The notes: a model not told the origin generated them from the letters alone. Shown: positions 15,041 through 59,072, counted from the first letter of the stretch. The stretch is 64,000 nt of DNA from Lachnospiraceae bacterium (GCA_031556725.1 JAVBSL010000016.1:6364-70363), one strand, 5' to 3'. Program-made: numbers and translations.

Positions 15041-15070
15041 TTCCATTGTCAACACTTTTATGAAAAATAA

Positions 15071-24999: not shown

Positions 25000-25071
25000 A
25001 GCGCGAGACGGGACTCGAACCCGCGGCCCCGACCTTGGCAAGGTCGTGCTCCACCACTGAGCCACTCGCGC
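25000..25071 (-). tRNA. tRNA-Gly (anticodon GCC)
   Basis: Minus-strand read: GCGCGAGTGGCTCAGTGGTGGAGCACGACCTTGCCAAGGTCGGGGCCGCGGGTTCGAGTCCCGTCTCGCGCT. The acceptor is GCGCGAG/CTCGCGC, the anticodon loop is TTGCCAA, the T-arm has GGTTCGAGTCC, and the discriminator is U. CCA is not encoded. Confidence 0.85.
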
Positions 25072-27105: not shown

Positions 27106-27253
27106 CACATTTTGAAATTATTTTTACTTTTTTTACATTTTATTCCTTTTTACCATTTTATAACAGTTTTTTCATTGTTTTATTTCATATTAAGTATATA
27201 TTTCATGTTTTTATGATATTTCACAAACAATTTCAGCTATTTTTACAATAAAA

Positions 27254-27300
27254 ATCCCAAGATTACATCAGTTTATGCTGCTGAATCTCGGGATTTTTTT
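27254..27300 (-). terminator. Intrinsic terminator of the MCP gene
   Basis: atcccgagatt / aatcttgggat stem (one mismatch), followed on the minus strand by tttttatt and flanked by a T-run on the plus strand. Confidence 0.65.
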
Positions 27301-27317
27301 CTTTTTGTCGTTTTATC

Positions 27318-29021
27318 TTATTTAATTTGAAAAACACTGACTGTTTTCATCATCACATCGGTTTGTGAATTCAATTCCTCTGCGGCCGCTGCACTCTCTT
27401 CCGAAACGGAAGAATTCGCCAGCACAACACCGGTAATTCCATCAATATCCTGCACAATCTTTTCCAGTTCCTCGGCCTGTTGGAAAGAGGCTGTGGTAAT
27501 CTCCCTAACCAGTTCTTCCTGACTCTTGGTACTTTCCACAATTTTCTGCAAGGTTTTGGCAGTTTCCTCCACAATACGGGTTCCGACTTTGGTGGTTTCG
27601 ATACATTTCTGTATCAATGCTGTAGTATCTCTGGTGGCACTTCCGCTCTTATCCGCCAGACTGCCGATTTCCGATGCCACTACCGCAAAACCGCGGCCTG
27701 CTTCTCCTGCTCTGGCAGCTTCGATAGAAGCGTTCAATGACAGCAGATTGGTTTGATCAGAGATTTCTTCGATGGATTGAATAATATCCTGAATCTCATT
27801 CGTACTGCCTTCAATGGCTTTCATGGCTTCTACCATTTCTTCCATCTGTTTGGTTCCTGTATAGACGATTTCATTGGCCCGACCGGACAACATACCTACC
27901 TTTTTGGCATTTTCCGCATTAGTCGTTACTTTTTCGGATATGCTCTTAACTGCACCGGTCAGTACGTCGATTACTTCTGCTTCCTTTACGGTACCTTCCG
28001 CAAGCAGATTTGCACCTTCCGCAACCTGGCCGGAAGTACAGACCATCTCCTGTGATGCTTTTTTAATATTGCTCAACGCTTGATTAAAGGATTTAATAAA
28101 ATCATTGATCGATGTCTTTATTTCATGGAAATCGCCCTCAAAATCTTCGACAATTTCCACATTCATATTTTTCTCGGACATTTCGGTAGTAACTCGTGAG
28201 ATTTCTTTAATGTACCGCTTTAACATCACAATCATCTCACGGAAGGAGTCGGCCAAACTTCCGATTTCATCATCCTTGACCGATTGCACCTCGATATCCA
28301 GATGCCCTTCACTCATACTCTTGGCAACAATCATCATTTCATTCAGGGGTGTACAAATCTCAACAGCCAGTTGATTGGACTTTCTATTACCTACAATTAT
28401 TGCAATTGCAGTCATGATGACAATTACACCCAGTAAAATACCGGTTAAAACATCCGCACTTTGGGCAGTATCCCGGCATACGTCAATGTTGATTACCAAC
28501 AGCTCATCGATACTATTCTTGATTTGCTGTGCGTAAGGTTCCTGGTCATTTTTTATCATATGAAAGGCCTTCTCACTGATCATCTTATTAAACGCCGCCG
28601 TACTTTGAACTTCAGAAGCAATACTTACCACTTCCTCTGTATACTTGTTAAAGTTTCCAAGACTGGCTTCGATATCAGCAAATAAATCCCGCTCTTTCTG
28701 AGTGATACAGGTGGGTTTCAGCACCTCAAGTCTTTCATTCAGTTTTTCCTGGTCCTGAGTGATCTGGTTTCCCAGTTCCTGCTTCCTCGCATTTTCAGTC
28801 TCCAAAACCAGCGCCCGCAGATTCGTTCTGATATTCCCCAGCAATATACCGCATTCGCCCATATAACCCTGGCTTAAACCGTAGTTTTCGATTGCAAACT
28901 GGTAATCCGAACCAATCTTCAGCAAAGATGCCAGACTGATCGCTGCACTAATCACCATGAAAATCATGACAATTTTAAATGACTGCTTCGTTTTTGCTTT
29001 GATACCCCTTCTCTTTTCCAT
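27318..29021 (-). CDS. Methyl-accepting chemotaxis protein
   Basis: Two TM helices, a HAMP domain and a highly conserved MCP signalling hairpin ([32 protein letters not shown]). The start was set at MEKRRG (ATG 29021) behind gggagg. Confidence 0.9.
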
Positions 29022-29064
29022 ACATAACCTCCCAATCATGCGAGAACAGTTTTACATTAGTTTT

Positions 29065-30300
<1,236 letters not shown>

Positions 30301-32183: not shown

Positions 32184-32455
32184 GGGGCCCGGCTCAGCCG
32201 TCTGACTCGTTTAAATAGGTAATACACAAGTGTTTCTGCGATTTTTGAAAATTTGTAATGATTTCTTAGTGAAAAATTTTATAGCTTCAATTAAAAATCA
32301 GCAACTGTCCGACGAACAACGTGAGGAGTTTTGCTGATTTTTGATTTGCCTTTTGCTATAAAATTTTCCACTTAGAAATCAAACAAATTAGAAACATGAG
32401 CAGAAATTCTTGTGTACTACATATTTAAACGAGTCAGACGGCTGAGCCGGGCCCC
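32184..32455. repeat. 272-nt imperfect palindrome (long hairpin element C) between convergent genes
   Basis: The outer 33 bp are perfect (ggggcccggctcagccgtctgactcgtttaaata / tatttaaacgagtcagacggctgagccgggcccc). Further paired blocks are atttcttagtgaaaaattttatagc / gctataaaattttccacttagaaat and aaaaatcagcaa / ttgctgattttt. Confidence 0.85.
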
Positions 32456-32480
32456 CTCATAACCCCTTACAATCCCCCAC

Positions 32481-33527: not shown

Positions 33528-35279
33528 CTATTTATCCATACCTAATTTTATATTCAAAAATTCCGCATAAGCTGCATAAGCCGACGGAATCGGATACCGT
33601 TCCTGAACATCACCTGTTTCCACAAAGATCATACCGTCGTCACTGCTCTGATTCTCAGTCAGTTCATCTACTTTGACAATATATCCGGTCATATGCCATT
33701 CTTTGTGGGTAAAAATATGCTTGCCGGGCGGCAATTCTTTGATGTAGATTGCCTGTACACCAATGGCTGCTAATTCCCGTAAAACTTCTTTATCTGATAA
33801 GTGTCCCTCTAATGTCGGAAATTCATACATGCCGGCTAATAATCCCTTATCCGGCCGCTTCTTCAAAGCCACTGTTTTGTCCTTACGCAGAATCAAAATG
33901 GTTTTATTTTCCTTTTTACGTTCCTTTTTAATCACTTTTACCGGAAATTCCGTTTCCCTGCCTGTCAAATGCGCAGCACATAACTCCTTCAGGGGGCATT
34001 GCGTGCATTGGGGTGCACCACCAGGAAGGCAGACCATCGCTCCCAAATCCATCATCGCCTGATTAAAATCCCCGGGCCGTTTGCCTGGAATCACTGCCTG
34101 CAGTTCCTGTTCAACCCTTTTTCTAATCTCCGGTCTGGTAACATCAGCACCGTCTGCCCACAAACGAGCTATTATCCGCAGCACGTTACCGTCCACGGCG
34201 GCCGCTCTTTGTCCGTAAGCAATGGAACTCACCGCACCTGCTGTGTAGTTTCCGATTCCGGAAAGCTTCTTCAGGTCTTCGTAGGCTGATGGCATGACAC
34301 CATCATACTCATCCATCACCTGCCTTGCTGCTTTTTGCATATTGCGCACCCGGTTATAATAGCCAAGGCCTTCCCACAGCTTCAGAAGCGTTTCTTCCTG
34401 TGCCTTAGCAAGACTCCTGATATCAGGCAGCGCCTCGATAAATCTCGCATAATAAGGCTTGACCGCTTCTACTCTGGTCTGCTGCAGCATGATTTCCGAA
34501 ACCCACACATGATAGGGGGTTGGTTCCTCCCGCCAGGGCAAAATCCGTCTTTTTGTATCATACCACTTTAATAAGGGAGTGGCAATCTCATCCAGTAGAG
34601 AAAGTTTCACCGGCACCTCTTTTCGGATCTCCATCCTCACGGGCGTCACCAGACAATCATATGCCAGAACCTGCACACCGGCAGCCCTGGCCTCCCGCAA
34701 GGCTTCGGCAAATTCCGGTTGGATTTCTTCGTTGGGCTTAAAGCAAATCACATCTTCCATCTGTACTACCAAAAGAATATATGCCTGATAGCCTTTTCGA
34801 ACCGCTTCCGTCAATTCCTTTACATGTTTGACAGCCCGCTCGGAAGGAGCATCCGGAAAATATACCACATTGTCCTTTTCAAGTGTTACCCCCTTCACTT
34901 CTATTAAGATTTTTTTCTGCCCTGCCTCCGCATAAAAATCAAGCCGTGAATCTCCGTATCGGTATTCCGGCTTCAAAGTCTGCAGGTTTGGAAATAAAAT
35001 TTTCTTTTTAAGCCACTCTGCCACTGCCATATTGGGTGCCTGAGAATCCATATTGATCAGACGCGAACCCTTTTGTACTGCAACCAGATCATAACGGGTG
35101 CTGCGTTCCGGCTTATCACTTTCAGCCAGAAACACCTTGGCATTCTCGGTCAGCAATTCCTGACACCTGCCGGTGTTTTTCACATGTACCCGCTCTGTGT
35201 TCCCTTCTATGTCCACATTGGCAATAAACCGATTAGGACGGCTTAGAAACCGTCCTTCGATTATCTTCTGATACTCCAC
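33528..35279 (-). CDS. mutY: Fusion protein: N-terminal SfsA (DNA/RNA nuclease SfsA family) + C-terminal A/G-specific adenine DNA glycosylase MutY
   Basis: 583 aa in one uninterrupted frame. Residues 1 to about 228 are SfsA-like (RFLSRPNRFIANV...VHVKNTGRCQELL...DSRLDF). From about residue 235 the sequence is MutY-like (LLKWYDTKRRILPWR, VSEIMLQQT, GLGYYNR, Fe-S loop CLPGGAPQCTQCPLKELC, Nudix-like C-terminus). The GTG start overlaps the upstream stop by 1 nt. Confidence 0.8.
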   Translation of the reverse strand: MEYQKIIEGRFLSRPNRFIANVDIEGNTERVHVKNTGRCQELLTENAKVFLAESDKPERSTRYDLVAVQKGSRLINMDSQAPNMAVAEWLKKKILFPNLQTLKPEYRYGDSRLDFYAEAGQKKILIEVKGVTLEKDNVVYFPDAPSERAVKHVKELTEAVRKGYQAYILLVVQMEDVICFKPNEEIQPEFAEALREARAAGVQVLAYDCLVTPVRMEIRKEVPVKLSLLDEIATPLLKWYDTKRRILPWREEPTPYHVWVSEIMLQQTRVEAVKPYYARFIEALPDIRSLAKAQEETLLKLWEGLGYYNRVRNMQKAARQVMDEYDGVMPSAYEDLKKLSGIGNYTAGAVSSIAYGQRAAAVDGNVLRIIARLWADGADVTRPEIRKRVEQELQAVIPGKRPGDFNQAMMDLGAMVCLPGGAPQCTQCPLKELCAAHLTGRETEFPVKVIKKERKKENKTILILRKDKTVALKKRPDKGLLAGMYEFPTLEGHLSDKEVLRELAAIGVQAIYIKELPPGKHIFTHKEWHMTGYIVKVDELTENQSSDDGMIFVETGDVQERYPIPSAYAAYAEFLNIKLGMDK

Positions 35280-41753: not shown

Positions 41754-41786
41754 GATTTTTCTTTTCTCCTTTCATAACCTGCTTTT

Positions 41787-41998
41787 CCGACAATTACAAG
41801 ACTTATACTCGGCAACGAGATGCTACAATTTATTTTGTGTAAATCCCTTTTTGTCACGAAAATGAAACTTTAATTCGTGGAGCTCGCTTGTGCGAACACG
41901 AATTATGCTTAAGGTTCATTGTAGTGTTTGGCAAAACAGGATTGGAACAAAATAAATTGTCGCATCCCGCTGCCGAGTATAAGTCTTGTAATTGTCGG
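41787..41998 (-). repeat. Long hairpin element A (212 nt) inside the tyrS 5' leader
   Basis: The outer 28 bp are perfect (ccgacaattacaagacttatactcggca / tgccgagtataagtcttgtaattgtcgg) and pairing continues to an apical region near 41881-41897. The core is homologous to 58938-58980. Confidence 0.85.
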
Positions 41999-42017
41999 TC
42001 AACAACCCCCCGAGGAC

Positions 42018-42329
42018 AAAAAAATCCCGTCCTCATGTTTCCATAAGGACGAGATGTATCTCGCGTTACCACCTTATTTTATAAACAGCTCACACTGTTT
42101 ACCTCATCAGGTACGGTCCTGCTCCTACTGCTGCCGGCGATACCCTTGCACACGATGACGGGGTGCTTATCCGTCGCAGCCTACTTAGTTTCCCGTTCGG
42201 TGCGCAACTCAAAGAGGTATTCACATCCGCTATCCCCACGCCTCTCATCGACCGGCTGCTTTCTGTCAGGCTTCCTGAATGTTACTATTTCTTATCATAG
42301 TCTTTGCTTTCTCTATGAAATTGTTAATT
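42018..42329 (-). promoter_or_regulatory. T-box riboswitch leader, tyrosine specifier (UAC), with terminator
   Basis: All reads are minus-strand:
- Stem I 5' side: CUAUGAUAAGAAAUAGUAAC (K-turn/AGUA).
- Distal motif: ACAGAAAGC.
- Specifier context: GUGAA-UAC-C (UAC = 42219-42217).
- T-box sequence: AAUAAGGUGGUAACGCGAG (about 42061-42079).
- Terminator: CGUCCU...AGGACGGG plus U7 (42018-42053). Confidence 0.8.
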
Positions 42330-42335
42330 GTCTGT

Positions 42336-42364
42336 ATCTTATACCCAATTTTTGCCCCTGTCAA
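42336..42364 (-). promoter_or_regulatory. Candidate promoter of the tyrS T-box leader (TTGACA-N17-TAAGAT)
   Basis: Minus-strand read: cTTGACAggggcaaaaattgggtaTAAGATacag. Confidence 0.55.
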
Positions 42365-44568: not shown

Positions 44569-44675
44569 AATTCCTCCATTCGCTTAATAAACTCCATTAT
44601 AATTTCGAAAATCTTAATTTCAATAAACTTTCGATGAATTGCATTTTAGCGAGGTGAGTTGCATCTGAAACGGGC

Positions 44676-44710
44676 AAAAAAAGACGAGGTTCATAACATC
44701 CTCGTCCCTT
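44676..44710 (-). terminator. Intrinsic terminator of mgtE
   Basis: On the minus strand: gacgagg-atgttatgaa-cctcgtc followed by T8. Confidence 0.6.
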
Positions 44711-47069: not shown

Positions 47070-49814
47070 ATGAATTACGGAAAAAGAGGTGTCCGTGCAA
47101 AGCAGAAAGCTTTGAACTCCACCGGCGGAAAATGGGGGAAAAAGGTATTACTGACCTTCTTCAATCTTATTCTCATTTGCTTAATAGCAGTAGGCATCAT
47201 TGCTGCCTGTGCCGGTTTCGGGGTGTTTAAAGGCATTATCGATACTGCGCCGGACATTAGTAATATTAACGTAACCCCGACAGGCTTTTCAACCTTTGCC
47301 TATGATATCGAGGGTAACAATATAGCCAAATTGGTTAACAAAAATTCCAATCGAATCCCTGTGGGCAAAGATATGATTCCGGAAAATCTTTCACATGCTT
47401 TTGTTTCCATCGAGGATGAGCGTTTTTATGAACATAACGGTATTGATATCCAAGGTATTTTTCGTGCTGCTTATGTAGGTATCAAGAATAAATTTGATTT
47501 TTCGGAAGGGGCCAGTACCATTACCCAACAGCTTTTGAAAAACAATGTATTTACCGACTGGACCAGCGAAAAAAGCTTTGCGGAAAAAGCCAAGCGAAAG
47601 GTACAGGAACAATATCTGGCCCTGGAGCTTGAAAAAATCATGTCCAAAGAAGATATTCTGGTTAACTATATGAACAGCATCAACCTGGGCCAGAATACTC
47701 TGGGTGTACAGGCAGCATCACAACGTTATTTTAACAAGTCGGTAAAGGATTTAAACCTTTCCGAATGTGCTGTTATTGCTGCTATTACCCAAAATCCCAC
47801 CCGTTTTAACCCGATATCCCATCCTACGGATAACGCTGAACGGCGTAAAAAGGTTCTTGGAAATATGCTGAAGCATGAGTATATTACCCAAACCCAATAT
47901 GATGATGCAATTGCCGATGATGTGTATTCCCGCATTCAGGTAGTGGATGAAGAAGTTGCTGATGACGCTACCAATTCTTATTTTGTAGATGCACTGATTG
48001 ATGATGTGATGGAAGATTTGCTGGCTGCCGGTTACAATGAAACTCAGGCGTATACGCTTCTGTATAGCGGCGGTTTGAAGATTTATACCACTCAGGACCC
48101 GGCTATTCAAAAGATTTGCGATGACGTCTTTTTAAATGAAGAAAACTATCCGGCTAACACCCGGTGGTATCTTAATTATGATTTGACTATCGAAAAGGCC
48201 AACGGAGATAAAGAGAACCACAGCAAAGAAATGTTAAAGGATTACTTTTTGGAATCAAACCGCGACTTTAATTTGATTTTCAATTCGCAAGAGGAAGCAT
48301 ATGATGCCATTGCAGAATATAAAGCTGTTGTTATGTCAAGCGGCGACGAGGAAATTGGTGAAAAAATCAGTTTAACACCTCAGCCTCAGGTTTCCATTAC
48401 AGTTGAAGATCAAAGTACCGGTCATGTGGCTGCCATGGTAGGTGGCCGCGGTACCAAAACCGGAAGCCGAACCCTGAATCGTGCGGTAGATGCCAAACGT
48501 CAGCCCGGTTCCTGCTTTAAAATTGTTGCTGTTTATGCACCGGCTCTTGACAGTGCCGGATTAACCCTGGCTACCGTCCAGAATGATGCACCTTTTAACT
48601 ATGCTGATGGCCGGCCGGTTAGCAACTGGTGGTCAACGGGATACCGCGGACTGGCCTCCTTACGAGACGGTATCCGCGACTCGATGAATATTATTGCCGT
48701 AAAGACTTTAACCCAGATTACCCCCCAGTTAGGTTTTGACTACCTGCTGAACTTTGGTTTCACAACACTGGTAGACCGGGAAGAAGTAACCGTGGGCGGC
48801 AAAACCGATATCCATTCCGATATCGTACAGTCACTTGCTTTGGGCGGTGTTACAAAGGGTGTAACCAACCTGGAATTAAATGCTTCCTATGCTGCCATTG
48901 CCAATGGTGGTATGTACATTAAGCCTAAGCTATATACCCGGATAATCGATCATGATGGTAACGTCCTGCTTGATAATACCAATCCCGTGTCCAGACAGGT
49001 TATTAAGGAAACTACTGCTTATCTGCTGACCCATGCCATGACGGATGTTGTGACCTCTGGAACCGGTACTGCTGTTAATTTTGGTGGCATGGCGATTGCC
49101 GGAAAAACCGGAACCACCTCCCTTTACAATGATGTGTGGTTTGCCGGATATACTCCTTACTATACCGCAACCACCTGGACCGGATATGACAATAACGTAA
49201 AATTGCGTAAGGGCGAGGAACAAGCCCTGTCCAAGAAACTATGGCGGGCGGTTATGTCACAGATCCACGAAGACTTACCCAGCCTTACCTTCCAGGTACC
49301 TTCCGGTATCGTTCAGGCAACGGTATGTTCCCGTTCCGGTAAATTGCCGATCGCCGGACTTTGTGACGGTACCTTAAGAACCGAATACTTTGCCGAAGGA
49401 ACAGTACCTACGGACAGTTGCAACGCCCACTATCAGGGTATGGTATGTCAATACTCAAACTTACCTGCATGTGAGTCCTGTCCTTTCATGGTTCCCGGCG
49501 TGCTGGAATTGACTCCTCCGGAAGACCCCTCCTTATTGAGCGGTTCCGGAACTGCACCTGCCAATGTAGGCGGTGCTTCCATTACCAAAGAGGTGGTTAA
49601 TGAAGATGGATCCATAACCAACATCGTTATTCCGCAGACTAATACAGCATCCTGCCCGCATAATCTGGAATTCTTCGCTAATCCGGATGCACCGGCAATT
49701 ATTGAACAACAACGTAATGAAATGAATATGGCCGCAGCGGCGGCACAGGCGGCGGCTGAAGCTGCCAATGCGATTCCCGCTCTTCCGATGGGCGAGGAAA
49801 ATGCTCCCGAGTAG
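47070..49814 (+). CDS. Class A penicillin-binding protein (PBP1A, transglycosylase + transpeptidase)
   Basis: GT51 motifs (EDERFYEHNGID, GASTITQQL) and transpeptidase motifs (SCFK, SMN, KTGT). The start was set at MNYGKRG (ATG 47070) behind aggagg. Confidence 0.9.
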   Translation: MNYGKRGVRAKQKALNSTGGKWGKKVLLTFFNLILICLIAVGIIAACAGFGVFKGIIDTAPDISNINVTPTGFSTFAYDIEGNNIAKLVNKNSNRIPVGKDMIPENLSHAFVSIEDERFYEHNGIDIQGIFRAAYVGIKNKFDFSEGASTITQQLLKNNVFTDWTSEKSFAEKAKRKVQEQYLALELEKIMSKEDILVNYMNSINLGQNTLGVQAASQRYFNKSVKDLNLSECAVIAAITQNPTRFNPISHPTDNAERRKKVLGNMLKHEYITQTQYDDAIADDVYSRIQVVDEEVADDATNSYFVDALIDDVMEDLLAAGYNETQAYTLLYSGGLKIYTTQDPAIQKICDDVFLNEENYPANTRWYLNYDLTIEKANGDKENHSKEMLKDYFLESNRDFNLIFNSQEEAYDAIAEYKAVVMSSGDEEIGEKISLTPQPQVSITVEDQSTGHVAAMVGGRGTKTGSRTLNRAVDAKRQPGSCFKIVAVYAPALDSAGLTLATVQNDAPFNYADGRPVSNWWSTGYRGLASLRDGIRDSMNIIAVKTLTQITPQLGFDYLLNFGFTTLVDREEVTVGGKTDIHSDIVQSLALGGVTKGVTNLELNASYAAIANGGMYIKPKLYTRIIDHDGNVLLDNTNPVSRQVIKETTAYLLTHAMTDVVTSGTGTAVNFGGMAIAGKTGTTSLYNDVWFAGYTPYYTATTWTGYDNNVKLRKGEEQALSKKLWRAVMSQIHEDLPSLTFQVPSGIVQATVCSRSGKLPIAGLCDGTLRTEYFAEGTVPTDSCNAHYQGMVCQYSNLPACESCPFMVPGVLELTPPEDPSLLSGSGTAPANVGGASITKEVVNEDGSITNIVIPQTNTASCPHNLEFFANPDAPAIIEQQRNEMNMAAAAAQAAAEAANAIPALPMGEENAPE

Positions 49815-49831
49815 GGGCAAGCTCATCCAAC

Positions 49832-49872
49832 AAAAAACACACCGGATATTTACGCTCCGGTGTGCTTTTTTA
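49832..49872. terminator. Bidirectional terminator between PBP1A and the accessory block
   Basis: cacaccgga-tatttacgc-tccggtgtg, flanked by A6 and T6. Confidence 0.7.
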
Positions 49873-49880
49873 TGTTTGCT

Positions 49881-50309
49881 TTATAATTCGGAAAGACCAT
49901 TGATTAAAAACAGTTCCATAGGTTCTTCATATTGCGGAATATTAATCAGTAATCCACCCGCATCTTGATATCCCATTTTCCTGTAAAAGTGCTGAGCATC
50001 TTCATCCACTTGTGTAGATGTCATGATCATTCCATATCCTAATCGCTTCATGTCTTTTTCCCAAAAATCCATAAGTATTTTTCCGTAACCCTTATGTTGA
50101 TATTCCCAATCCACGAAAAGCATTGTACAAAAAGGGGTATTATCCCAAAAAAGATTGTATCTGAGTAAACCAATCGGATCCTGATCTTCTAGTAATACAT
50201 ATCCCATTTTATCTCTGATTTTCTTTTCAAATTCAGCCTCTGGCAAATGACTGTCCAGTTTAAACCAAAAAAGTTTATCTTCCTTTTGAACATATCTGAC
50301 ACTTATCAT
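49881..50309 (-). CDS. GNAT family N-acetyltransferase
   Basis: The GNAT core (FVDWEYQHKGYGKILM...HFYRKMGY). The start was set at MISVRYV (ATG 50309) behind ggagg. The track ORF has a 49-aa upstream extension that overlaps the neighbouring gene. Confidence 0.75.
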   Translation of the reverse strand: MISVRYVQKEDKLFWFKLDSHLPEAEFEKKIRDKMGYVLLEDQDPIGLLRYNLFWDNTPFCTMLFVDWEYQHKGYGKILMDFWEKDMKRLGYGMIMTSTQVDEDAQHFYRKMGYQDAGGLLINIPQYEEPMELFLINGLSEL

Positions 50310-50371
50310 AACATCCTCCACCAGTTTCTCTATAAAGTTACCAGCCACTGTCCATTTGTTAATAAATCGCC

Positions 50372-51427
50372 CTAGACTAAAAAAGATGTCATATATACTG
50401 GTACATATCTGATATTTTCTTTCCTGTCTACATCCTTTTGTGAAATAATATAGCAATCATTTATGTGTTTAGAATATCGGTTTCTTAACTCTGTCAGTGA
50501 ATCATGTTTTCCAACTCCAGAAGATTTAACCTCTATAGCAGACACCTTTGCTCTCTGTGATATCAAAAAATCAATTTCATAATAATGTGTGCTTCCTTCC
50601 TTTTTCCATGTATGGTAATATAGCTCTCTTCCCGTTGCTGTTAACATTTGTGCAACGATATTTTCGTACAAATATCCTAAATTAGCCGGAAGTTTATCCG
50701 ATAAAAGTTTTGCATATATTTCATTTTCTGCAACAGGTCTATCTATAAACATTAATGTAATAAATAATCCTGTATCTGCGATATATAGTTTATAGCTATC
50801 AAGATCTTTCGTAAGCGATAAGCTTGCTCTCGGATCAGTTGAATTGTAACACGGTAAAACCGTTTTCGAATCAATCAAGTCATATATAAGATTATCATCC
50901 TTGGATGTTTTTCTTTTACCAAGTGCAGCAGATACTCGATATTTTTTTGTATCTTTAGACAATTGTGCCGGTATAGAATGATACATTGCCGATAATCTGC
51001 CAGACGGATCAATTTTTTTAAAATCCTCTTCATATAATTTAATAATCTGCCGTTTTACTTGATCAATCATCGAAAAATTATCACCGCCCACATATGCTTC
51101 AATTGCCTGCGGCATTCCGCCAACCGCCATATACACTCTTACATCACGCATAAGCTTTCGGTTTACTGACTGGCCAATTCCTTTTTTCATTTCAAATAAG
51201 TTTTGCAACATTGAATAGTTTTTATCTGTTGCATCACAAAATTCTTCATAATCCATTGGGTATACTTGAATTTTCATTTCTTCTGATGGAATCAATATAT
51301 CTTTTACATTCTTTTTTATTGAGATTAACGATCCCGTCTCGATATAATGATATCTTCCATCTTTTACTAAATGCTTAATCGCCTGCCTTTCTTTTAAAAT
51401 ACATATATTTCCTCCTATTTTCCATTC
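50372..51427 (-). pseudogene. 5'-truncated AAA-ATPase (DUF4143-type) gene remnant
   Basis: The open frame reads ...ILKERQAIKHLVKDGRYHYIETGSLISIKKNVKDILIPSEEMKIQVYPMDYEEF..., typical of the region after the ATPase core. There is no Walker A and no in-frame ATG with an RBS upstream. The frame is closed by TGA at 51430-51428. Confidence 0.6.
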
Positions 51428-51464
51428 TCATTTTCCATTTATGCATTTCTTCAAAATTACTATA

Positions 51465-52358
51465 TTATATTTTGTGCATTTCTTCAACATTTTGCCCTAA
51501 ATAATCATAAAACTTTTCATGCAAATCACGCATTTCTGCCGGTGCATTCATAGAATGCTGATACATAAATTGGTGTCCAAATTTACTTCGAAAAATAATT
51601 CTAAGAGCTTTGGTAAAAATCCAAGTCGGACATATCATAAATAAATTAAATTTAAAGGGAGAAAGCATCTTCTTTTCTGAAAGTATCTTAAAATTAGCTT
51701 TCATTCTTTTGGCTGTTTGTGCCATGATTTTTTTATCAAGATATACTCTCTCAGGATATTCACTCATATAATATGCATCTGCAATCGGCACCACCATTCC
51801 AAGGTGAGAAACTTGCCAATTATGCATACTTGATACGATTTGATATGGTATATGACTCTTTCGAAATACATACGCAAGTGTCTTTTGCCTTGTACTTTGC
51901 TTCCCACTTATTTCACCAAAAGTTGTAGGCTGAATAATCTTGGGGGTAAGAGCTGCATTTAGTATCCCATTTTCTATACTGCCGCCTGCTCCCGGAAATG
52001 CCGGTAAAATTCTTCCCTCGCCACAAATTTTTCCCCAATTACTATATATTTCTATTGTATTTACCATAGTCACAATATTCGGACTTTTGTTATTTTTCAG
52101 TTCTAAAAGGGCTTCCTCTACCTGCTCTTCCCTAACAGTTAAAAAGATGAAATCAAATTCAACGTTTGTTTGCAATACGTCAAGAATTTGAACATTTGCC
52201 TTTTTTACCTGATGCTTATTAATATATTGCAAACCATTCTCCTGCAAATATTTTAACCGTTTTCCTCTGGCATAAACCGAAACATCAAATCCTGCTTCTG
52301 AAAATAGTGATGCATATAAACTTCCGATAACACCTGCCCCATATATTAGAATTCGCAA
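51465..52358 (-). CDS. Ketopantoate reductase (ApbA/PanE) family oxidoreductase
   Basis: 297 aa with the Rossmann N-terminus MRILIYGAGVIGSLYASLF. Confidence 0.7.
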   Translation of the reverse strand: MRILIYGAGVIGSLYASLFSEAGFDVSVYARGKRLKYLQENGLQYINKHQVKKANVQILDVLQTNVEFDFIFLTVREEQVEEALLELKNNKSPNIVTMVNTIEIYSNWGKICGEGRILPAFPGAGGSIENGILNAALTPKIIQPTTFGEISGKQSTRQKTLAYVFRKSHIPYQIVSSMHNWQVSHLGMVVPIADAYYMSEYPERVYLDKKIMAQTAKRMKANFKILSEKKMLSPFKFNLFMICPTWIFTKALRIIFRSKFGHQFMYQHSMNAPAEMRDLHEKFYDYLGQNVEEMHKI

Positions 52359-52604
52359 ACTGTTTCCCTCACTTTTTCTTTCCCTGCTCTTCGCTCCTAA
52401 ATTCGTTGAAAATACTGCTCAGACAATGTTTTCACCTAATATTATTTTAGGCATTGTGGTCAAACATCGGTTCCATCGCTTGTAGAATTTTTCTATATCA
52501 AATTTTGATACCCTCTTTAACCGCATTAAAACCCTTTTGTTTATGGGTACGTTTTATATAGTGAACATCTATAACACCTTCTTGACTTATCTCGGTTCTA
52601 CAAA

Positions 52605-53153
52605 CTACAACTTCTTAATCATCACAAACTCATCGCTATAGGTACCATCATCATATTTCATGGCATTTACATGCTTTCCGGTTTCTATAAATCCATTTTT
52701 CTCATAAAGACTCCTGGCAGCCTTGTTTCCATCCACAACTTCAAGTTCTATCTGTTCATAACCGATCTTTCTTGCCAATTCGGATAAATATTCAATCATC
52801 GCCGTTCCAAGGCCCAGTCCCCAATATTCTTTCTTAAGAGCTATTGCCAAAGAACATCTATGCTGAATTTTTCTCTTATTTCCAAGTCCATTTATACTAC
52901 AGTTACCTGCTACTTTACCATCAACTAATCCCATCATCATTACGGAGTTTTCATCTTCCAGCAAACGATTCAAAATCTCTTTTTCGCCATCTACTGTATA
53001 TGTGACTTCATCCGGATATCGCAAGAGAAAAGGAGTCTCCGTAGATGTTGTCTTTAAATACGCAATCATATCCTCGGCATAATCTGTACTTGTTGGACAT
53101 AATATGCATTCTTTACTATTCTTTAAGGTTATTTTACGTTCTTCAAATCTCAT
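52605..53153 (-). CDS. GNAT family N-acetyltransferase
   Basis: 182 aa; ALKKEYWGLGLGTAMIEYL...LYEKNGF. Confidence 0.8.
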   Translation of the reverse strand: MRFEERKITLKNSKECILCPTSTDYAEDMIAYLKTTSTETPFLLRYPDEVTYTVDGEKEILNRLLEDENSVMMMGLVDGKVAGNCSINGLGNKRKIQHRCSLAIALKKEYWGLGLGTAMIEYLSELARKIGYEQIELEVVDGNKAARSLYEKNGFIETGKHVNAMKYDDGTYSDEFVMIKKL

Positions 53154-53166
53154 ATAAATCTCCCTG

Positions 53167-53646
53167 TCAATTTAATTTTAATTCCATATACAACTCTGCA
53201 CTTTTATTATCATTATAAACAGGTATTTCAGCAAATCCATGCTTATGATATAAGTGCACCGCCATACGGAGTTCTTTTCTGGAATCGAGGCGCATTTTAT
53301 CAAACCCATTTTCTCGTGAATAAGAAATTGCGGTTTCAAGCAATAAATGCCCATAGCCCTTACCTTGGTATTCTTTTAGCATAAACATTCGCTTCAATTC
53401 TGCAACTTTTTCTTCTTTATCCTCTACACTGATATTTCTAACGGCAACCGTCCCTATCAATAAATCACCCTCGTAAAGACACCACATACAGCCCTTTGCC
53501 ATGTACTCTTTTTGAATATTTACGGTATCTGAATGTCTGTCATTTGGTTCATAGCCCCAACCTAAATCAGTGAAACATTTATAATAGAATTCTTCAATAT
53601 CCTGTTGCATTTCATTATTATATATTCTTAATTCAGCCATTTTCAT
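53167..53646 (-). CDS. GNAT family N-acetyltransferase
   Basis: 159 aa; MLKEYQGKGYGHLLLETAI...LYHKHGF. Confidence 0.8.
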   Translation of the reverse strand: MKMAELRIYNNEMQQDIEEFYYKCFTDLGWGYEPNDRHSDTVNIQKEYMAKGCMWCLYEGDLLIGTVAVRNISVEDKEEKVAELKRMFMLKEYQGKGYGHLLLETAISYSRENGFDKMRLDSRKELRMAVHLYHKHGFAEIPVYNDNKSAELYMELKLN

Positions 53647-53655
53647 GATTCCTTA

Positions 53656-54192
53656 TCAATATAATTCAGCAGTATAAATCTCTTCCACCGGAAATGTTAT
53701 CTTTACCAATCCTACAGAAACAAACTCTCCGCTGAGTTTTTTAAATTCATGTAATATCAAATCACTTGCCTTATAAAAAACACTATCGTCGTCTTCTCCG
53801 GTCAGGGCTATTGTACAATGTGGAACCCAACCATTTGGACAATACCATTCCCAACCGGTTTTATCAAAATCACTTAAATATTCATGTAATTCTTGATGAA
53901 ATCGGTACATACTGCTATTCATTATCGGTGATACATAAATCGTCTTTGTATCATTAAACATTCCTACTGAACCAATGTATGCCGGCATTCGCTTATGGTC
54001 TTGGGCAAAATTTTTTAATTGTTCTATACATTTTTCTTCCTCCACATCATTAAAGCAAGCTAATGTAAGATGTGGGCGTATTTTCCATTCTAAATACTTC
54101 GTACTTAATTTTTCATCTGCTATTCTTTTAGCTAAATTAAAAAGTTTCTGTTCTGTTTCTTTATCATAATATAATTCAATTGCATATTGCAT
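53656..54192 (-). CDS. 2H phosphoesterase superfamily protein (LigT / 2'-5' RNA ligase-like)
   Basis: Two HxT/S motifs (RPHLTLACF and VPHCTIAL). The start was set at MQYAIELYY (ATG 54192) behind ggagg. Confidence 0.7.
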   Translation of the reverse strand: MQYAIELYYDKETEQKLFNLAKRIADEKLSTKYLEWKIRPHLTLACFNDVEEEKCIEQLKNFAQDHKRMPAYIGSVGMFNDTKTIYVSPIMNSSMYRFHQELHEYLSDFDKTGWEWYCPNGWVPHCTIALTGEDDDSVFYKASDLILHEFKKLSGEFVSVGLVKITFPVEEIYTAELY

Positions 54193-54277
54193 ATCATTCT
54201 CCTCCATAAATTCTTTAGGTTAGAATTTATCTTTCTTAGTTTTCTAAAAATTTGAATTTGATAACTACACATTATGC

Positions 54278-54862
54278 TTATAATGCGCATATTTTATCAA
54301 GTTGAAATGGAAGTTCAGACAAGCAAAGTTTGTAATAATTATCGACAGCTCTTGCTCGTCTTTTATCGGCGTGATGTTCGTCGTATATGGCGATAATTTT
54401 TTTCATCCATGTTACTTCACTTGGCGCTGCCACAGACAAAAATCTTAAAACGACTAAAGATGAGTCAAAACATTCTCCTAAATAGCAACCATGATAACCA
54501 AAGCAAGTGGCTTTAAGACGATTAAGAGTTCGTTTTGTCATTTCGACTACATCAGGGTTACTTGGTGCAAATAGGTTTAATAACCGCAGTATTTCCAACT
54601 CATACATATTGCCATTTAGTATATGAGTTTTAGGCAGTTGCCCCATAATTGTTTTAAGTTTCTTACCATCATTTTGTGGTGCAGAGAAGAATAAAGGATG
54701 TCGTGCTTTGGCAATAGGCTTTTCATCATAGCTTTCATGATCCTTGGGAGTGTTGGCTATCAAAAGAAATTGACTGACTATGTAAGTTTTCTCCTTATCA
54801 GAAAATACCTCACCTGCTAATATTCGCCTATTTGTTTCGAGTAACAGTTCATATTCAATCAT
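54278..54862 (-). CDS. Hypothetical protein, no family recognised
   Basis: A 194-aa ORF in the same orientation and spacing as its neighbours. It contains CFGYHGCYLGECF. Confidence 0.5.
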   Translation of the reverse strand: MIEYELLLETNRRILAGEVFSDKEKTYIVSQFLLIANTPKDHESYDEKPIAKARHPLFFSAPQNDGKKLKTIMGQLPKTHILNGNMYELEILRLLNLFAPSNPDVVEMTKRTLNRLKATCFGYHGCYLGECFDSSLVVLRFLSVAAPSEVTWMKKIIAIYDEHHADKRRARAVDNYYKLCLSELPFQLDKICAL

Positions 54863-55079
54863 AAAATCATCTCCTATATATTTACTTTAAATCAATAAAT
54901 AAGACAGCAGTACGTCATATTACAAAATATAAATTATCTACATCCAGTCCGCCCCGTCAACTTCTGATTCGTCGAAACTTGTGTCACTGGTGGTGACGCA
55001 AATAATATTTTCTCTTTTTAGCTTAAATCGCTCATTTTTTTCAATTTAATCACTTATTAATTTCACATGCTTATACTGT

Positions 55080-55544
55080 CTACAATTCCTCAAACGATTC
55101 ATCAATGTATGTGCATAGTTCCCATGTTGTGAATGTTCCCTCGTCAATCATACGATTAATTTCATCACGGCTTACCCACTTTGCATTGCAGGTTTCATCA
55201 GGAGCAAGAATTATAGTTGCTATGTTTACATTTTGCCGAAACAACCAAACATCAACCAAACCGTGACATTCCTCGTTGCAGCACCGTAAGTGATGTTGAA
55301 TCATTCGTCCGTTCTGCGGCTCAAGAATTATGCCTAATTCTTCTTTCGCCTCCTTCAATGCCGTAGTTAAGCTATCATCTCCAGCAATCACATTTCCGCC
55401 CGTGCATTCCCATATATTGGGGAACATCTTGTTAGGCGATCTTTGCGATATAAGGTATTCGCCTTTGTTCATGGGCTTGCCACGCTCGTGAACACGTCCT
55501 GTAACATTACCGTTTTTATCTAATATATCCCAAAGTTCAATCAA
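55080..55544 (-). CDS. NUDIX hydrolase
   Basis: A Nudix box variant (GNVIAGDDSLTTALKEAKEELGI). Confidence 0.7.
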   Translation of the reverse strand: MIELWDILDKNGNVTGRVHERGKPMNKGEYLISQRSPNKMFPNIWECTGGNVIAGDDSLTTALKEAKEELGIILEPQNGRMIQHHLRCCNEECHGLVDVWLFRQNVNIATIILAPDETCNAKWVSRDEINRMIDEGTFTTWELCTYIDESFEEL

Positions 55545-56166
55545 GCTTATTCCTCTTTTTTCCCCACCTGTATAATAATTTATCTGCTACAAAAACAATA
55601 TATCCTATCGCAAGAAAAGCAGCTGTAAGTCCCAAAACGCTCAGCATTACTGTTCCCCATCCAAGGACGTCTGAATCTATAAAGAAGTATGGATAATGAC
55701 TTCCGTCATAGAATGTCATACCTAGCTTCGCTGCAATGACAGTAAATATGTAATAGCACAGTGGTATAATCAGCCATTTGAAGGGATCAAGTCTGTTTAA
55801 TCGCCCTTTTGGGTCAAACACAACCCAATCCAATATCGAAAGTACCGGAACAAAAAGATGTACAATCAGGTTGGCCAATGGAGAAGTACCTTCTGCCATT
55901 TCAAATCCGGCACCTACCAGGATAAACCAGTAAATCAATAGAGTAACCGTGATAGCCATAATTACAGCTCCCTTTGCGTGGATAGCCCATGTGCTTTCAC
56001 CACGTACCCCGTCTTTTTTGATTGCCTGAACAACTGCAATACCGGCGGCAAGAAAATAAAGTAAACAAAAGAGATTGCTTAATATCGTATAATACAAAAA
56101 CATCGCGGGCGCAAAACTCCCGTTTGGTAATCCGGAATTAAGGTAAAGGCCAATTGCCGTTACCAT
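55537..56166 (-). CDS. Polytopic membrane protein (Pr6Pr/FAR-17a-AIG1-like by recollection)
   Basis: 209 aa with about 6 TM helices. The family assignment is tentative. Confidence 0.5.
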   Translation of the reverse strand: MVTAIGLYLNSGLPNGSFAPAMFLYYTILSNLFCLLYFLAAGIAVVQAIKKDGVRGESTWAIHAKGAVIMAITVTLLIYWFILVGAGFEMAEGTSPLANLIVHLFVPVLSILDWVVFDPKGRLNRLDPFKWLIIPLCYYIFTVIAAKLGMTFYDGSHYPYFFIDSDVLGWGTVMLSVLGLTAAFLAIGYIVFVADKLLYRWGKKRNKLD

Positions 56167-56181
56167 GATTATAACGTGCGC

Positions 56182-56844
56182 CTAAAGCACAAACATTAAA
56201 AACAAAACAATCCATGACTTTCTGATATCCCTATTGACAAGCAAGTAAGCTGCACCAAACATAAACCCTGATATGGCTGATAGTATACCGTTGGCCGGGT
56301 CAAAGAAACCACGACTGAGGATATGTGCTATACCCCAAGTCAAGCCGCAAACAATTCCGCCCCACGGTAAATTTGTTTTTTTTGTCCAACTTTCAAATGC
56401 TTTTTGACCAAAAACTATTATTAGTAAAAACATTACCGTTTCAACCATATAGTAGATATATTGAAACACAAACCGCAGCGGTCCGTTTGCATTGAACTCA
56501 CTAATTACTTTGAAATTCATGCCCCAGGCTATATAGCTTATCACCAATGAAAGTACAACTGCAAAAATTACGGTACCATATTGCCAAAGCTTCATCTTTT
56601 CGCCTTTTGCAAATATATCAAAGCCCGTTTTCTTTTTTGCGATTCGCACAAGCAAAACAGCCGTGAAACTCCACAATATGCAGGTTACAATCCAATGCAA
56701 AATTAATTGCCAGTGTGGTCCCTGAAAACTTGCAATTTCCCCAAAGGCAAGATAGCCAAGCCCAATTACTAAAAATTCCAACCCAAGCCCTAAAAATGCA
56801 CCCAACGCAAACAGTAAATACTTCCATCCCAAACTTTTCATCAA
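56182..56844 (-). CDS. Polytopic membrane protein (possibly CPBP/Abi-like)
   Basis: 220 aa with about 6 TM helices. WGIAHIL and a conserved-looking Glu in YYMVETVMF. Weak assignment. Confidence 0.45.
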   Translation of the reverse strand: MMKSLGWKYLLFALGAFLGLGLEFLVIGLGYLAFGEIASFQGPHWQLILHWIVTCILWSFTAVLLVRIAKKKTGFDIFAKGEKMKLWQYGTVIFAVVLSLVISYIAWGMNFKVISEFNANGPLRFVFQYIYYMVETVMFLLIIVFGQKAFESWTKKTNLPWGGIVCGLTWGIAHILSRGFFDPANGILSAISGFMFGAAYLLVNRDIRKSWIVLFLMFVL

Positions 56845-56886
56845 ACTGCCTCCTCCATTTTTACAAAGTAATCTTTTTTGCTTAAT

Positions 56887-57369
56887 TTATAGTTGCTTTT
56901 TCATATATCCACAGGTAAAAGGAAAAAAATCAAACTTTTTTGTTCCGATGTGCTCTGCCCCATGCCGCTCATACCACTTGCGCAATTTAACATTCTCTTC
57001 AACAATATCAATATTCATTTGGATACAACCTTGTGCTCTGCCTTGTTCGCAAGCATGTTCAAGAAGTTTTTCACCTATCTTTTTATGTCTGAATTCTTCC
57101 AAAACACATAAATTACTCAGTTCGCACTCATTTTCATTTTTTATTAGTAGAGAATAATAGCCAACAATTTTATGGTTTTCTATGTAAGCAAACATTAGTC
57201 TTTTTTCTTCTTCTAAATGCCACATGAGGCGTTCTTCAGTTGTGGCAAATGCTGTAAATCGCGGTGCATTATCTATAGTGAAATTAAAATCATTTGCCAC
57301 TGTCATAAAACTTTTACTAATTACTTCCACACACTCTTTTATATTATCTTTTTCAATCTGCTTAATCAT
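56887..57369 (-). CDS. GNAT family N-acetyltransferase
   Basis: 160 aa; VLEEFRHKKIGEKLLEHA...WYERHGA. Confidence 0.8.
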   Translation of the reverse strand: MIKQIEKDNIKECVEVISKSFMTVANDFNFTIDNAPRFTAFATTEERLMWHLEEEKRLMFAYIENHKIVGYYSLLIKNENECELSNLCVLEEFRHKKIGEKLLEHACEQGRAQGCIQMNIDIVEENVKLRKWYERHGAEHIGTKKFDFFPFTCGYMKKQL

Positions 57370-57410
57370 ATGTTCTACCTCACGAATTGGAATTTACCCT
57401 CCGCTATCGC

Positions 57411-57872
57411 TTAATTCACCAAAAAATAGTCCTTTATTTCATCAAGCAAAAAGTCTTCAATCACTTCAATCTCGCTTATATAGCTACCTGCTTTTATAAC
57501 ATCCCTGCATTTAATAAACGACCAGTTTTCCTGTCTCCCCTTAAAGTCGGGGTTATTGGCATATACTATGCCTTCAAAACCTGTCCAGATTATCGCTGAT
57601 GCACATAACGGACATGGTTCAAATGTAGAATATAACCAGTATCCCGGCAGTTTATCTGTTTTTAGTTGCTTACATGCATTTCTAATAGCATTTATTTCCG
57701 CATGTGCAGTCGGATCGTGGTCCTTCCAGATTGTTGTTTCACCTTTAGCGACTATATTACCTTGCGGATTGATAACTGCCGCAACTATTCCTTTGTCATC
57801 CCATGCATCTTTAATCAATTCCCTCATAATTCTTTCACTTGGATGTTTTATATTTTCTATCATTATAATCAT
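57411..57872 (-). CDS. Nucleoside/nucleotide deaminase, CDA zinc-binding family
   Basis: HAEINAI and PCPLCASAI zinc-ligand motifs. Confidence 0.8.
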   Translation of the reverse strand: MIIMIENIKHPSERIMRELIKDAWDDKGIVAAVINPQGNIVAKGETTIWKDHDPTAHAEINAIRNACKQLKTDKLPGYWLYSTFEPCPLCASAIIWTGFEGIVYANNPDFKGRQENWSFIKCRDVIKAGSYISEIEVIEDFLLDEIKDYFLVN

Positions 57873-58007
57873 CTCCTATCCATTCTGATTTTCTATTTAG
57901 AAGCAAATTGCTATAATTCAACTACTTTGTTCCCCGCCTTATGAAATGAGTGAAAACAACTACTGCTTTCACTCATCTCTTATGCCTTATTTTCTTACAT
58001 AACACTC

Positions 58008-58543
58008 TTACTTCGCAGTTTTGCAATCTATGCTTTTTCCTTTACGAAGTTTTTTGCATATCTGTTCAATTAACTTCTGAGCCGCACCCTGCTCAATTCC
58101 AATCTCTAAAATATTCATCCTCACAGCCTCCCATTCTTCTGACTGTTTCACTTCACTAACTATCTCATTCAATTTTTCTATCCGCTTATCCTTCACCAGT
58201 ATCTCAGGGTTATCCAGACTTGTCTTTTTCATGTACTGCAGCAAACTCACCAGTTCCGGCTTTCCTTCTTTACTCGTCATATTTAGAAATATATTGAACT
58301 GGCGATTCTTGTTATCCATCGCCCAAGCATCCAGACGAATCGCCCGCTTTCCACTCTTGTTTAGGACCACCTGCTCTACTTCCACCTCTTCCAGCAAAAG
58401 ATCCTCCTCATCCATTATGATACTGAGAACATTTTCGTATGCCGTCTTTTGGCGCATCACCGACAAAACAAAGCAAAATCACTTAAATTGAGCTCGTAGT
58501 TTTCAGACAGCAGTGGGTATCCTGTTACTTTTTCTTCTTCCAT
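58008..58543 (-). pseudogene. Disrupted Rpn-family / PD-(D/E)XK 'putative transposase' gene
   Basis: From ATG 58543: MEEEKVTGYPLLSENYELNLSDFALFCR, then a stop. The track ORF 58008-58466 continues in another frame (VMRQKTAYENVLSI...RAIRLDAWAMDNKNRQFNIF...). The nuclease core between FNI and the C-terminal helical region appears to be deleted. Confidence 0.65.
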
Positions 58544-58857
58544 ATGTTTCTTCCTTTCTGCTTATTGGCAGAAAGTTTCTCATCTATGTCTCTCTGCCTG
58601 TTTATTAGGGATTTCAGCAAAGAGTTCAGATCTTGAGATAGCCCAATACGGCTAAAGAAATATAGATAAAAAAGTTTAGAATTCATTGCTTATCCGTATC
58701 GTAACATATGGATATTAAAAAGTAAATCTATTTCGTGCGAGCGCCATACCTGCTGTTTCACTGCCTGATGTATGAATGGTTGTGAAGGTTTTAACCCTCA
58801 CTCGCTTTTTAAAGTTTTTTCGCAAAGTGCAAGTTGAGATACCGGCCCGCAGGGCCG

Positions 58858-59056
58858 TTAGATTAAGGCAAGAGCCAGCAACGAGAAAAAGCAATTTATT
58901 CCGTAAAAATCCCTTTTTACCATGGAGATGAGACTTAAATTCGTGGAGCCCGCTCGTGCGAACACGAATTTTGCTTAAGGCTCATCGAAATGCTTGGTAA
59001 AACAGGATTTGAACGGAACAAATTGCTTTTCTCATTGTCGGCTCTGCCTAATCTAA
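58858..59056 (-). repeat. Long hairpin element B (199 nt), homologous to element A
   Basis: The arms are ttagattaaggcaagagccagcaacgagaaaaagcaatttattccg / cggaacaaattgcttttctcattgtcggctctgcctaatctaa. The core 58938-58980 is almost identical to 41872-41913. It starts 17 nt after the stop of the isomerase-like gene. Confidence 0.85.
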
Positions 59057-59072
59057 CCCCCGCCGCCCCGAT

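Follow-up and report, generated by a model that had tools for sequence, protein, structure and literature searches.

An apparent lineage-specific insertion of a multi-copy hairpin repeat between the T-box terminator and the ribosome-binding site of tyrS in an uncultured Lachnospiraceae-like bacterium

Introduction

In the trp leader of Streptococcus pneumoniae, a BOX repeat is located between two T-boxes; it is co-transcribed with the leader, and regulation is retained (PMC3049150). BOX elements are modular (boxA, boxB and boxC) and have known terminal inverted repeats (TIRs) and target-site duplications (TSDs). The Correia elements of Neisseria (CREE/NEMIS, ~100-150 bp) are dispersed hairpin-forming repeats that are transcribed inside mRNAs; RNase III binds and cleaves their hairpins, and neighbouring genes are expressed differently as a result of the hairpins (PMC2649163, PMC10969869). 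Their TIRs are 26 bp long and conserved, their ends form promoters, and a TA duplication and an IHF site are present as well. REPINs, which occur mainly in Proteobacteria, are extragenic hairpins of ~90-110 nt that are mobilised by RAYTs and whose copies form within-genome populations. Their ends (the REP 16-mers) are highly conserved, the apical spacer is variable and poorly conserved, and compensatory changes are frequent (PMC3116915). In classical MITEs, too, the terminal repeats are the conserved part. SPRITEs are enriched directly after coding sequences or between convergent genes, where they are possible 3'-end structures of transcripts, and consist of an 18-bp duplex followed by a U-rich tract. 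Integron attC sites are imperfect palindromes that are recognised by structure more than by sequence and lie directly after stop codons in one orientation. Their outer boxes are conserved (RYYYAAC...GTTRRRY) while the centre is variable, and they need an integron integrase and a cassette array.

Here, we describe a 212-nt hairpin (element A) in the tyrS leader of an uncultured Lachnospiraceae-like bacterium from an invertebrate gut metagenome, together with a second copy (element B) and two further long hairpins (C and D). A, B and C lie in a contiguous stretch of 64,000 nt, referred to as the window throughout; D lies in the closest relative. Like the BOX repeat of S. pneumoniae, A is a small structured non-coding repeat inside the T-box-controlled 5' leader of a Firmicute, and both would fold independently of the riboswitch and leave its regulation apparently intact. 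But A is a single 212-nt rod placed after the terminator and before the ribosome-binding site (RBS), and has no sequence similarity to BOX. Its location is unusual, not unprecedented. By analogy, the Correia elements may be the best model for what A does in the tyrS mRNA, although in the A/B family the ends are private, the apex is conserved and no sequence is shared with them. With REPINs, A and B share the extragenic position, a hairpin form in which no classical TIRs and no clear TSDs were found, the compensatory changes, and the occurrence in more than one copy per genome. Their conservation pattern, however, is the inverse of that of a REPIN, and no RAYT gene is present in the window. B, C and D resemble SPRITEs in their positions, and no TSD is established for SPRITEs either, but the hairpins described here are 170-270 nt long and have no U-tract. 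Structure conserved over sequence, a shared orientation and a position after a stop codon are also reminiscent of attC sites. We nevertheless rejected an attC identity: A lacks the boxes, B contains GTTAGAT...ATCTAAC and thus the reversed order, and neither an integrase nor a cassette array was found.

Results

Structure of the tyrS leader and of hairpin A

The elements of the tyrS leader and copy B are compiled in Table 1. UAC occupies the specifier position of the T-box, as judged from the RF00230 match (42042-42307, minus strand), and the ATG of tyrS is located at 41753-41751. A first-pass annotation, made from the sequence alone, had placed a 212-nt hairpin between the terminator of the Tyr T-box and the RBS, and all of its coordinates proved correct. 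A is separated by 19 nt from the U-run and by ~16 nt from the Shine-Dalgarno (SD) sequence. The same annotation had described the outer 28 bp as perfect and two mismatches further inside as A.C on the plus strand but G.U on the mRNA strand; both statements hold. The outer arms are exact complements, and the pattern occurs at 41787-41814 and 41971-41998 only, with 0 occurrences expected by chance.

Table 1. Features of the tyrS leader and copy B (window coordinates)
Feature	Position	Strand	Basis
Putative sigma-70-like promoter of the tyrS leader, TTGACA-17-TAAGAT	42336..42364	-	consensus scan; conserved in the relative's leader
T-box riboswitch leader, specifier UAC (Tyr)	42042..42307	-	RF00230, 105.4 bits vs gathering score 93
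T-box intrinsic terminator, 14-bp stem (42055-42024) and U-run (42024-42018)	42018..42055	-	terminator scan and sequence
G-rich junction segment GGGGGGTTGTTGA, from conserved leader to hairpin	41999..42011	-	unalignable with the relative
Hairpin element A, 212 nt, rod of 84-88 bp	41787..41998	-	fold, complementary arms; relative lacks the element
5' outer arm of A (mRNA sense), 28 nt	41971..41998	-	perfect complement of 41787-41814; private to A
Apical core of the hairpin family, ~130 nt, conserved	41826..41959	-	common to copy B and other metagenome contigs
3' outer arm of A (mRNA sense), 28 nt	41787..41814	-	perfect complement of 41971-41998
Tail AAAAGCAGGTTAT, from hairpin A to conserved RBS block	41774..41786	-	unalignable with the relative
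Shine-Dalgarno sequence AGGAG of tyrS	41766..41770	-	predicted pairing with terminator U-run, with or without hairpin A
tyrS, tyrosine-tRNA ligase, 403 aa	40542..41753	-	ORF; PF00579; homologues named tyrosine-tRNA ligase
Copy B, 201 nt, same orientation as A, preceded by GGGGCGGCGGGG (59058-59069)	58857..59057	-	similarity to A; relative lacks B

Folding of the minus strand from 41760 to 42030 recovered the long stem with a free energy of -126.9 kcal/mol, compared to -60 +/- 4 kcal/mol for 200 dinucleotide shuffles (z = -16.5; 0 shuffles were as good). For A itself, 88 pairs were predicted on the mRNA strand, including the two G.U pairs. The spacer between T-box and tyrS has a folding density of -0.45 kcal/mol/nt in the window, while 20 orthologous tyrS leaders range from -0.08 to -0.35 kcal/mol/nt; 19 of these 20 have values >= -0.24, and the value of -0.35 belongs to the remaining one (L003). 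An independent Logan contig from the same run covers the whole of hairpin A with identical sequence and at even depth. Therefore, A is not an assembly artefact.

The RF00230 match stops at 42042 and thus before the hairpin, and the orthologous T-box leaders have no such hairpin. A U-run does not follow A on either strand, and the terminator scan finds the T-box terminator only. In a search of A against Rfam 15 (gathering scores; E <= 10), the only matches were meaningless ones to plant miRNA precursors, which reached 32 bits against a gathering score of 200.

The hairpin site is empty in the closest relative

TyrS proteins of the GTDB species representatives are at most ~71% identical to that of the window. 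The closest relative found by protein search is a metagenome-assembled genome from the same sample (GCA_031555615.1), the TyrS of which is 84% identical. Its locus is syntenic, with the same gene order and ~83% DNA identity, and its T-box leader (on contig L083) is ~95% identical up to the terminator U-run. The first-pass annotation had suggested comparing filled and empty sites in the tyrS leaders of close relatives, and in this one the hairpin site is empty: the distance from the U-run to the ATG is 48 nt, compared to 264 nt (19 + 212 + 33) in the window. Homology between the two leaders ends at GTCCTC (42017-42012). Strictly speaking, the difference is a replacement of 27 unalignable nt in the relative by 238 nt (42012-41774) in the window, and the junction segment GGGGGGTTGTTGA (41999..42011) is possibly part of the inserted DNA.

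We also measured the distance from the end of the T-box model to the ATG. It amounts to 288 nt (76 + 212) in the window; of two relatives, the closest one has 74 nt and one with 73% identity has 115 nt. Among 20 further orthologues, 19 have 46-193 nt and one (L053) has ~362 nt. The earlier statement that T-box leaders normally run directly into the RBS is therefore roughly right, in the sense that 46-193 nt lie between the model end and the ATG in 21 of 22 orthologues. Deleting the 212 nt in silico results in a spacer like that of the 22 orthologous leaders, and a comparable hairpin is present neither in the leader of the relative nor in the 21 other orthologous tyrS leaders. Based on these comparisons, we interpret the 212-nt hairpin as a lineage-specific insertion of an uncatalogued multi-copy non-coding repeat and not as a part of the riboswitch. 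With one relative compared, a deletion of A from the relative instead of a gain in the window lineage is a formal alternative.

Long spacers between T-box and ATG occur in other Clostridia (L053, 2623-2986, ~362 nt; L003, 2227-2415, 187 nt; L019, 2807-3001, 193 nt), and the tyrS spacer of L003 holds two moderate hairpins (-65 kcal/mol). Insertions may thus have taken place independently at the same permissive spot. We also considered that the arms of A and B are template-switch copies of the native flank or terminator, but in local alignments the empty-site sequence of the relative aligned no better than shuffles, so that this origin is either rejected or the comparison is underpowered.

A and B are copies of a repeat with a conserved apex and a private base

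Copy B starts 15 nt past the stop codon of a fucose-isomerase-like gene, ~17 kb from A. At the syntenic sites of the relative both copies are absent, and the site of B is occupied by an ordinary terminator. The cores of A and B (41812-41959 and 58878-59025) are ~80% identical. When metagenome contigs were aligned to A at 80% likeness, the depth rose from 21 to ~190 over 41826-41959 only; overall, the depth on A and B is five- to ten-fold higher over the apical core only (41826-41959 and 58890-59025, respectively). The core was found in 12-19 further DNA contigs and in 9-14 metatranscriptome contigs of the source metagenome, all with different flanks. A and B are the only copies readable at full length, the others being contig pieces, and a second copy with the outer arms of A was not found among the contigs of the source metagenome. 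As to several copies per genome, there are the two copies 17 kb apart, the other cores being in metagenome contigs not assigned to genomes. Taken together, the apex is conserved (~80-87%) and the basal arms are private to each copy. The outer 20-39 nt of A and B differ in sequence, yet with indels permitted, the arms of A and B and that of a B-like RNA contig seem to be homologous.

Outside the source metagenome, the core pattern had 0 matches in the GTDB species genomes. A looser core pattern gave one match in the JGI metagenomes, a chance match in high-GC coding DNA, and no match in IMG/VR. Likewise, blastn gave no match to the family in plasmids and phages, and among other public runs the element was found in runs of one study only. 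The outer arm of A had been considered as a phage-matching guide, but this was rejected since it has no exact match in IMG/VR. A Logan contig that added 1.7 kb beyond the window contained no family copy.

With 212 and 201 nt, both copies are small enough for MITEs, which stay below ~300-600 bp, the ORFs overlapping them are short (<= 76 aa), and no ORF is conserved, the ORF ends differing between A and B. The best flanking direct repeats are compatible with chance for A (p = 0.21), B (p = 0.18) and C (p = 0.26) and reach p = 0.05 for D, with a combined Fisher value of 0.055; a clear TSD was thus not found. Conserved TIRs are missing as well: the ends of each copy are inverted repeats, but their sequences differ between A and B. 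Pfam scans of ~50 ORFs, which are housekeeping genes, detected no transposase, reverse transcriptase, RAYT or integrase in the 64-kb window. Because conserved termini, a clear target duplication, an ORF and a nearby transposase are all lacking, the family is not a proven MITE. Membership of A and B among MITEs or REPINs is not established; what is established is that they work like an intergenic hairpin repeat.

We next compared A and B pair by pair on the mRNA strand. All 73 pairs are intact; 17 of them differ on both sides, and six differ on one side with G.U as the result. In slid controls, with partners shifted by 1-3 columns, 40-46% of the cells pair and 0-2 double changes are seen. The apex is kept in sequence, whereas the basal 20-39 nt are kept only in their pairing. 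The sense strand folds better than its complement, both for A (-112.9 vs -108.7 kcal/mol) and for B (-99.6 vs -91.9 kcal/mol), and has 10 G.U pairs compared to 2. RNA-level selection could be behind this asymmetry. However, the G-rich leading strand (GC skew -0.2) is likewise the minus strand, and a hand calculation that allows for base composition leaves the surplus of sense-strand G.U pairs marginal (p ~0.06). Folded DNA of the lagging-strand template accounts for the asymmetry equally well, and the common orientation of A and B and their G.U excess are confounded with the replication strand.

Long hairpins differ between the window and the relative at four sites

Hairpin C, which folds over its whole length of 272 nt (32184-32455; ~-153 kcal/mol for each of the two strands), separates convergent genes for PAP2 and GT2 proteins. 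The stop codons of these genes are 9 nt apart in the relative, which lacks C, and 327 nt apart in the window. Other metagenome contigs also contain the apical core of C (32295-32405), flanked by different sequences. C was considered as a member of the A/B family and rejected, its sequence being unrelated. Hairpin D is private to the relative; it has a length of 171 nt (L083, 7030-7200) and lies 22 nt past the mgtE stop codon. At this site, the window contains an ordinary intrinsic terminator (GACGAGG...CCTCGTCTTTTTTT, 44665-44700), which makes D a reciprocal case of filled and empty sites. The likeness of D to B is marginal (14 of 500 shuffles). Over ~45 kb of shared synteny, the two genomes thus differ in four long hairpins, of which A, B and C occur in the window only and D in the relative only. 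Therefore, long hairpins turn over quickly in this lineage. All four adjoin a terminator or a stop codon.

On the minus strand, the inserted segments of A, B and C open with a G-rich tract where the homology to the relative ends (GGGGGG at 42006-42011, GGGGCGGCGGGG at 59058-59069 and GTGGGGGATTGTAAGGGG at 32456-32480, respectively). The G-run at the junction of C includes GTGGGGG, and D has no G-rich tract. Such a tract might belong to the element, reflect a preferred target or mark the junction.

Some further differences between the two genomes were observed. At 49814-59075, the window has a 9.2-kb block of 13 small minus-strand genes, among them genes for four GNAT acetyltransferases, a NUDIX protein, a LigT-like 2'-5' RNA ligase, a cytidine deaminase, a DUF4143 protein and ApbA; the relative has a single gene here, encoding an 869-aa protein with Flg_new domains. 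The GC content falls to 0.36 at 52-56 kb, and copy B lies at the edge of this block. An MCP chemoreceptor gene (27234-29072) is found in the window only. Conversely, ~2.9 kb adjoining a tRNA gene (L090, 9534-12449; tRNA gene at 25000-25071 of the window) are found in the relative only. Both genomes encode a fusion of SfsA (N-terminal OB and nuclease domains) to a MutY-like HhH-GPD glycosylase with NUDIX_4, which is a 583-aa ORF (33528-35279) in the window and was called with 593 aa in the relative. A near-palindrome between two genes at 15063-15149, with 39-nt arms that are 85% complementary, a 9-nt loop and A/T runs on either side, is probably a bidirectional terminator, judging by its sequence.

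Transcription of the hairpins and predicted effect of A on the leader

One RNA contig, identical to the window, extends from the fucose-isomerase-like gene through the 5' arm of B to its apex; an exact RNA contig over the 3' arm of B and beyond was not found in the metatranscriptome. Family members are hence transcribed together with neighbouring genes. For C, too, RNA contigs from the PAP2 and the GT2 gene both enter the arms. The metatranscriptome depth on tyrS is zero, at a DNA depth of 21, and carry-over of DNA in the RNA run is therefore low. From the leader sequence, it is reasonable that read-through transcripts of tyrS carry hairpin A, since the consensus scan revealed no sigma-70-like promoter site between A and tyrS. 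None of the outcomes that the first-pass annotation had named as refuting it was observed.

The influence of A on its flanks was studied by partition-function folding of the leader with and without 41787-41998. The flanks pair alike in both cases, the terminator U-run with the purine tract of the SD. The predicted probability of GGAG being unpaired is 0.31 with A and 0.32 without A if folding starts at the terminator, and 0.29 and 0.42, respectively, if it starts at the transcription start site. In these folding models, A behaves as an insulated rod and leaves the accessibility of the RBS nearly unchanged, and for this reason the insertion fits toleration. In more detail, the U-run of the T-box (42018-42024) is predicted to pair with the SD tract GGAGAAAAG (41761-41770), with a probability of being unpaired of ~0.1-0.3, with or without A. 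According to this thermodynamic prediction, the pairing could add translational damping to the read-through transcript.

Discussion

A probable tolerated, structure-maintained insertion

The first-pass annotation had listed four possible roles of A without choosing among them, namely a processing site for a double-strand-specific RNase, a 5' stabiliser, a second regulatory layer and a tolerated insertion of a mobile hairpin. The last is the reading that we favour, as it is supported by the empty site in the relative, a dispersed multi-copy family and the insulated rod in the folding models. As a whole, the explanation that A is a tolerated selfish insertion of a repeat family in the tyrS leader, maintained by its structure and a likely RNase III substrate, has in our estimate a probability of roughly 0.6. 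A is one copy of a family of ~200-nt non-coding hairpins that fold over their whole length, and would behave as a small non-autonomous mobile element. It would have entered the tyrS leader after the split from the nearest sequenced relative, landing downstream of the decision point of the T-box, the terminator, and upstream of the RBS. The T-box would still set the ratio of termination to read-through, and read-through transcripts would carry A folded on itself as an insulated double-stranded rod. The U-run and the purine tract of the SD are expected to keep the same relation as without A, and it is because of this that an essential gene would tolerate A in its leader.

By analogy, a rod of ~85 bp with a perfect basal duplex of 28 bp would be a likely substrate of RNase III. 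A cut would detach the coding mRNA from the riboswitch, and a remnant of the stem would stay at the new 5' end. The family would be maintained through the hairpin itself, the apex by its sequence and the base by its pairing. A conserved apex on a base conserved in pairing only points to structure-dependent propagation, via single-stranded DNA or RNA, and not to a transposase that reads terminal repeats.

Other explanations of hairpin A

The hairpin could also have been exapted as a regulatory or processing module and thus serve the host as a second layer of tyrS control, for example as an obligatory maturation site for RNase III, as a 5' stabiliser by which the half-life of the mRNA is set, or as a roadblock that dampens read-through. 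It is strictly kept by compensatory change, and for A as well as for B the fold of the sense strand is the more stable one. Moreover, B, C and D are found at the usual places of terminators, and two of the hairpin sites have an ordinary terminator in the other genome, which suggests that such hairpins can assume an RNA 3'-end function. But the compensatory changes separate lineages of the family and need not mean selection at tyrS, the strand asymmetry is marginal once base composition is considered, and the predicted accessibility of the RBS is unchanged. The closest relative and the other orthologous leaders, moreover, regulate tyrS without this hairpin. We regard exaptation as unlikely. A related idea is that the elements are a source of small RNAs, the 130-nt core being released from host transcripts by cuts in the variable basal duplex, as rRNAs are from their processing stems. 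This would fit the fairly sharp boundaries of the core, its variable paired flanks of at least 20 bp, and the presence of cores in metatranscriptome contigs, with a depth of up to 30 for one of them. However, the 'boundary' may be an alignment failure, given that the outer arms of A and B look homologous after indels, and the core is a further stretch of the same rod, without conserved large loops. The RNA evidence consists of assembled contigs without ends or strand, that for B is continuous with the upstream gene, and there is no match to an Rfam family. We therefore give a small-RNA function very little credence.

The elements might instead act at the level of DNA, as a folded single-stranded substrate for recombination or transposition by a structure-specific enzyme, comparable to REPIN/RAYT, IS200/IS605 or integron attC, in which case their presence in mRNA would be incidental. 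The conservation of structure over sequence, the failure to find TIRs or TSDs, and the placement of the G.T-tolerant strand of both A and B on the lagging-strand template would agree with this, and the same compensatory pattern is known from REPINs (PMC3116915). What speaks against it is that the apex is conserved and the ends are variable, the inverse of a REPIN, that A has no attC boxes and B has them in the wrong order, and that no gene for an HUH or a tyrosine recombinase was found in the window. We judge it quite improbable as an explanation of its own; it concerns the mode of movement and is compatible with the insertion of a tolerated repeat. Finally, the 28-bp perfect inverted repeats that flank the segment could be those of an inverton, or the hairpin could have arisen during assembly. 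Yet the interior is wholly palindromic and has no promoter, metagenome contigs at 90% likeness contain neither a flipped orientation nor variant letters, and no invertase gene is nearby in the 64-kb window; as for an artefact, two assemblies agree and diverged copies exist elsewhere. Both can practically be dismissed.

A wider proposal, which we put forward as a speculation with rather poor odds, is that A/B and, independently, C and D are representatives of a class of structure-defined mobile hairpins, the propagation mode and host use of which are undescribed for bacterial repeats. Such a class would be characterized by a conserved apex, a private but always paired base, a G-rich 5' junction and sites adjoining terminators or stop codons. 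It would have no terminal repeats, target duplication or nearby transposase and may move via an intermediate of single-stranded DNA or RNA. Its members may replace intrinsic terminators or serve as RNA modules processed by RNase III.

Implications

What is new is a family of a small structured intergenic repeat. Repeats inside leaders are known, so that no new regulatory principle is involved. The combination of a conserved apex with a private base, unlike that of REPINs and classical MITEs, deserves a census, as does the association with terminators. That a ~85-bp rod persists between terminator and RBS in the leader of an essential aminoacyl-tRNA synthetase gene is a natural experiment, which bears on the modularity of riboswitch leaders and on RNase III and mRNA decay in Clostridia. 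Hairpins turn over between two congeneric gut bacteria, often at the places of terminators, so that much of the UTR variation in uncultured Lachnospiraceae may stem from hairpin repeats.
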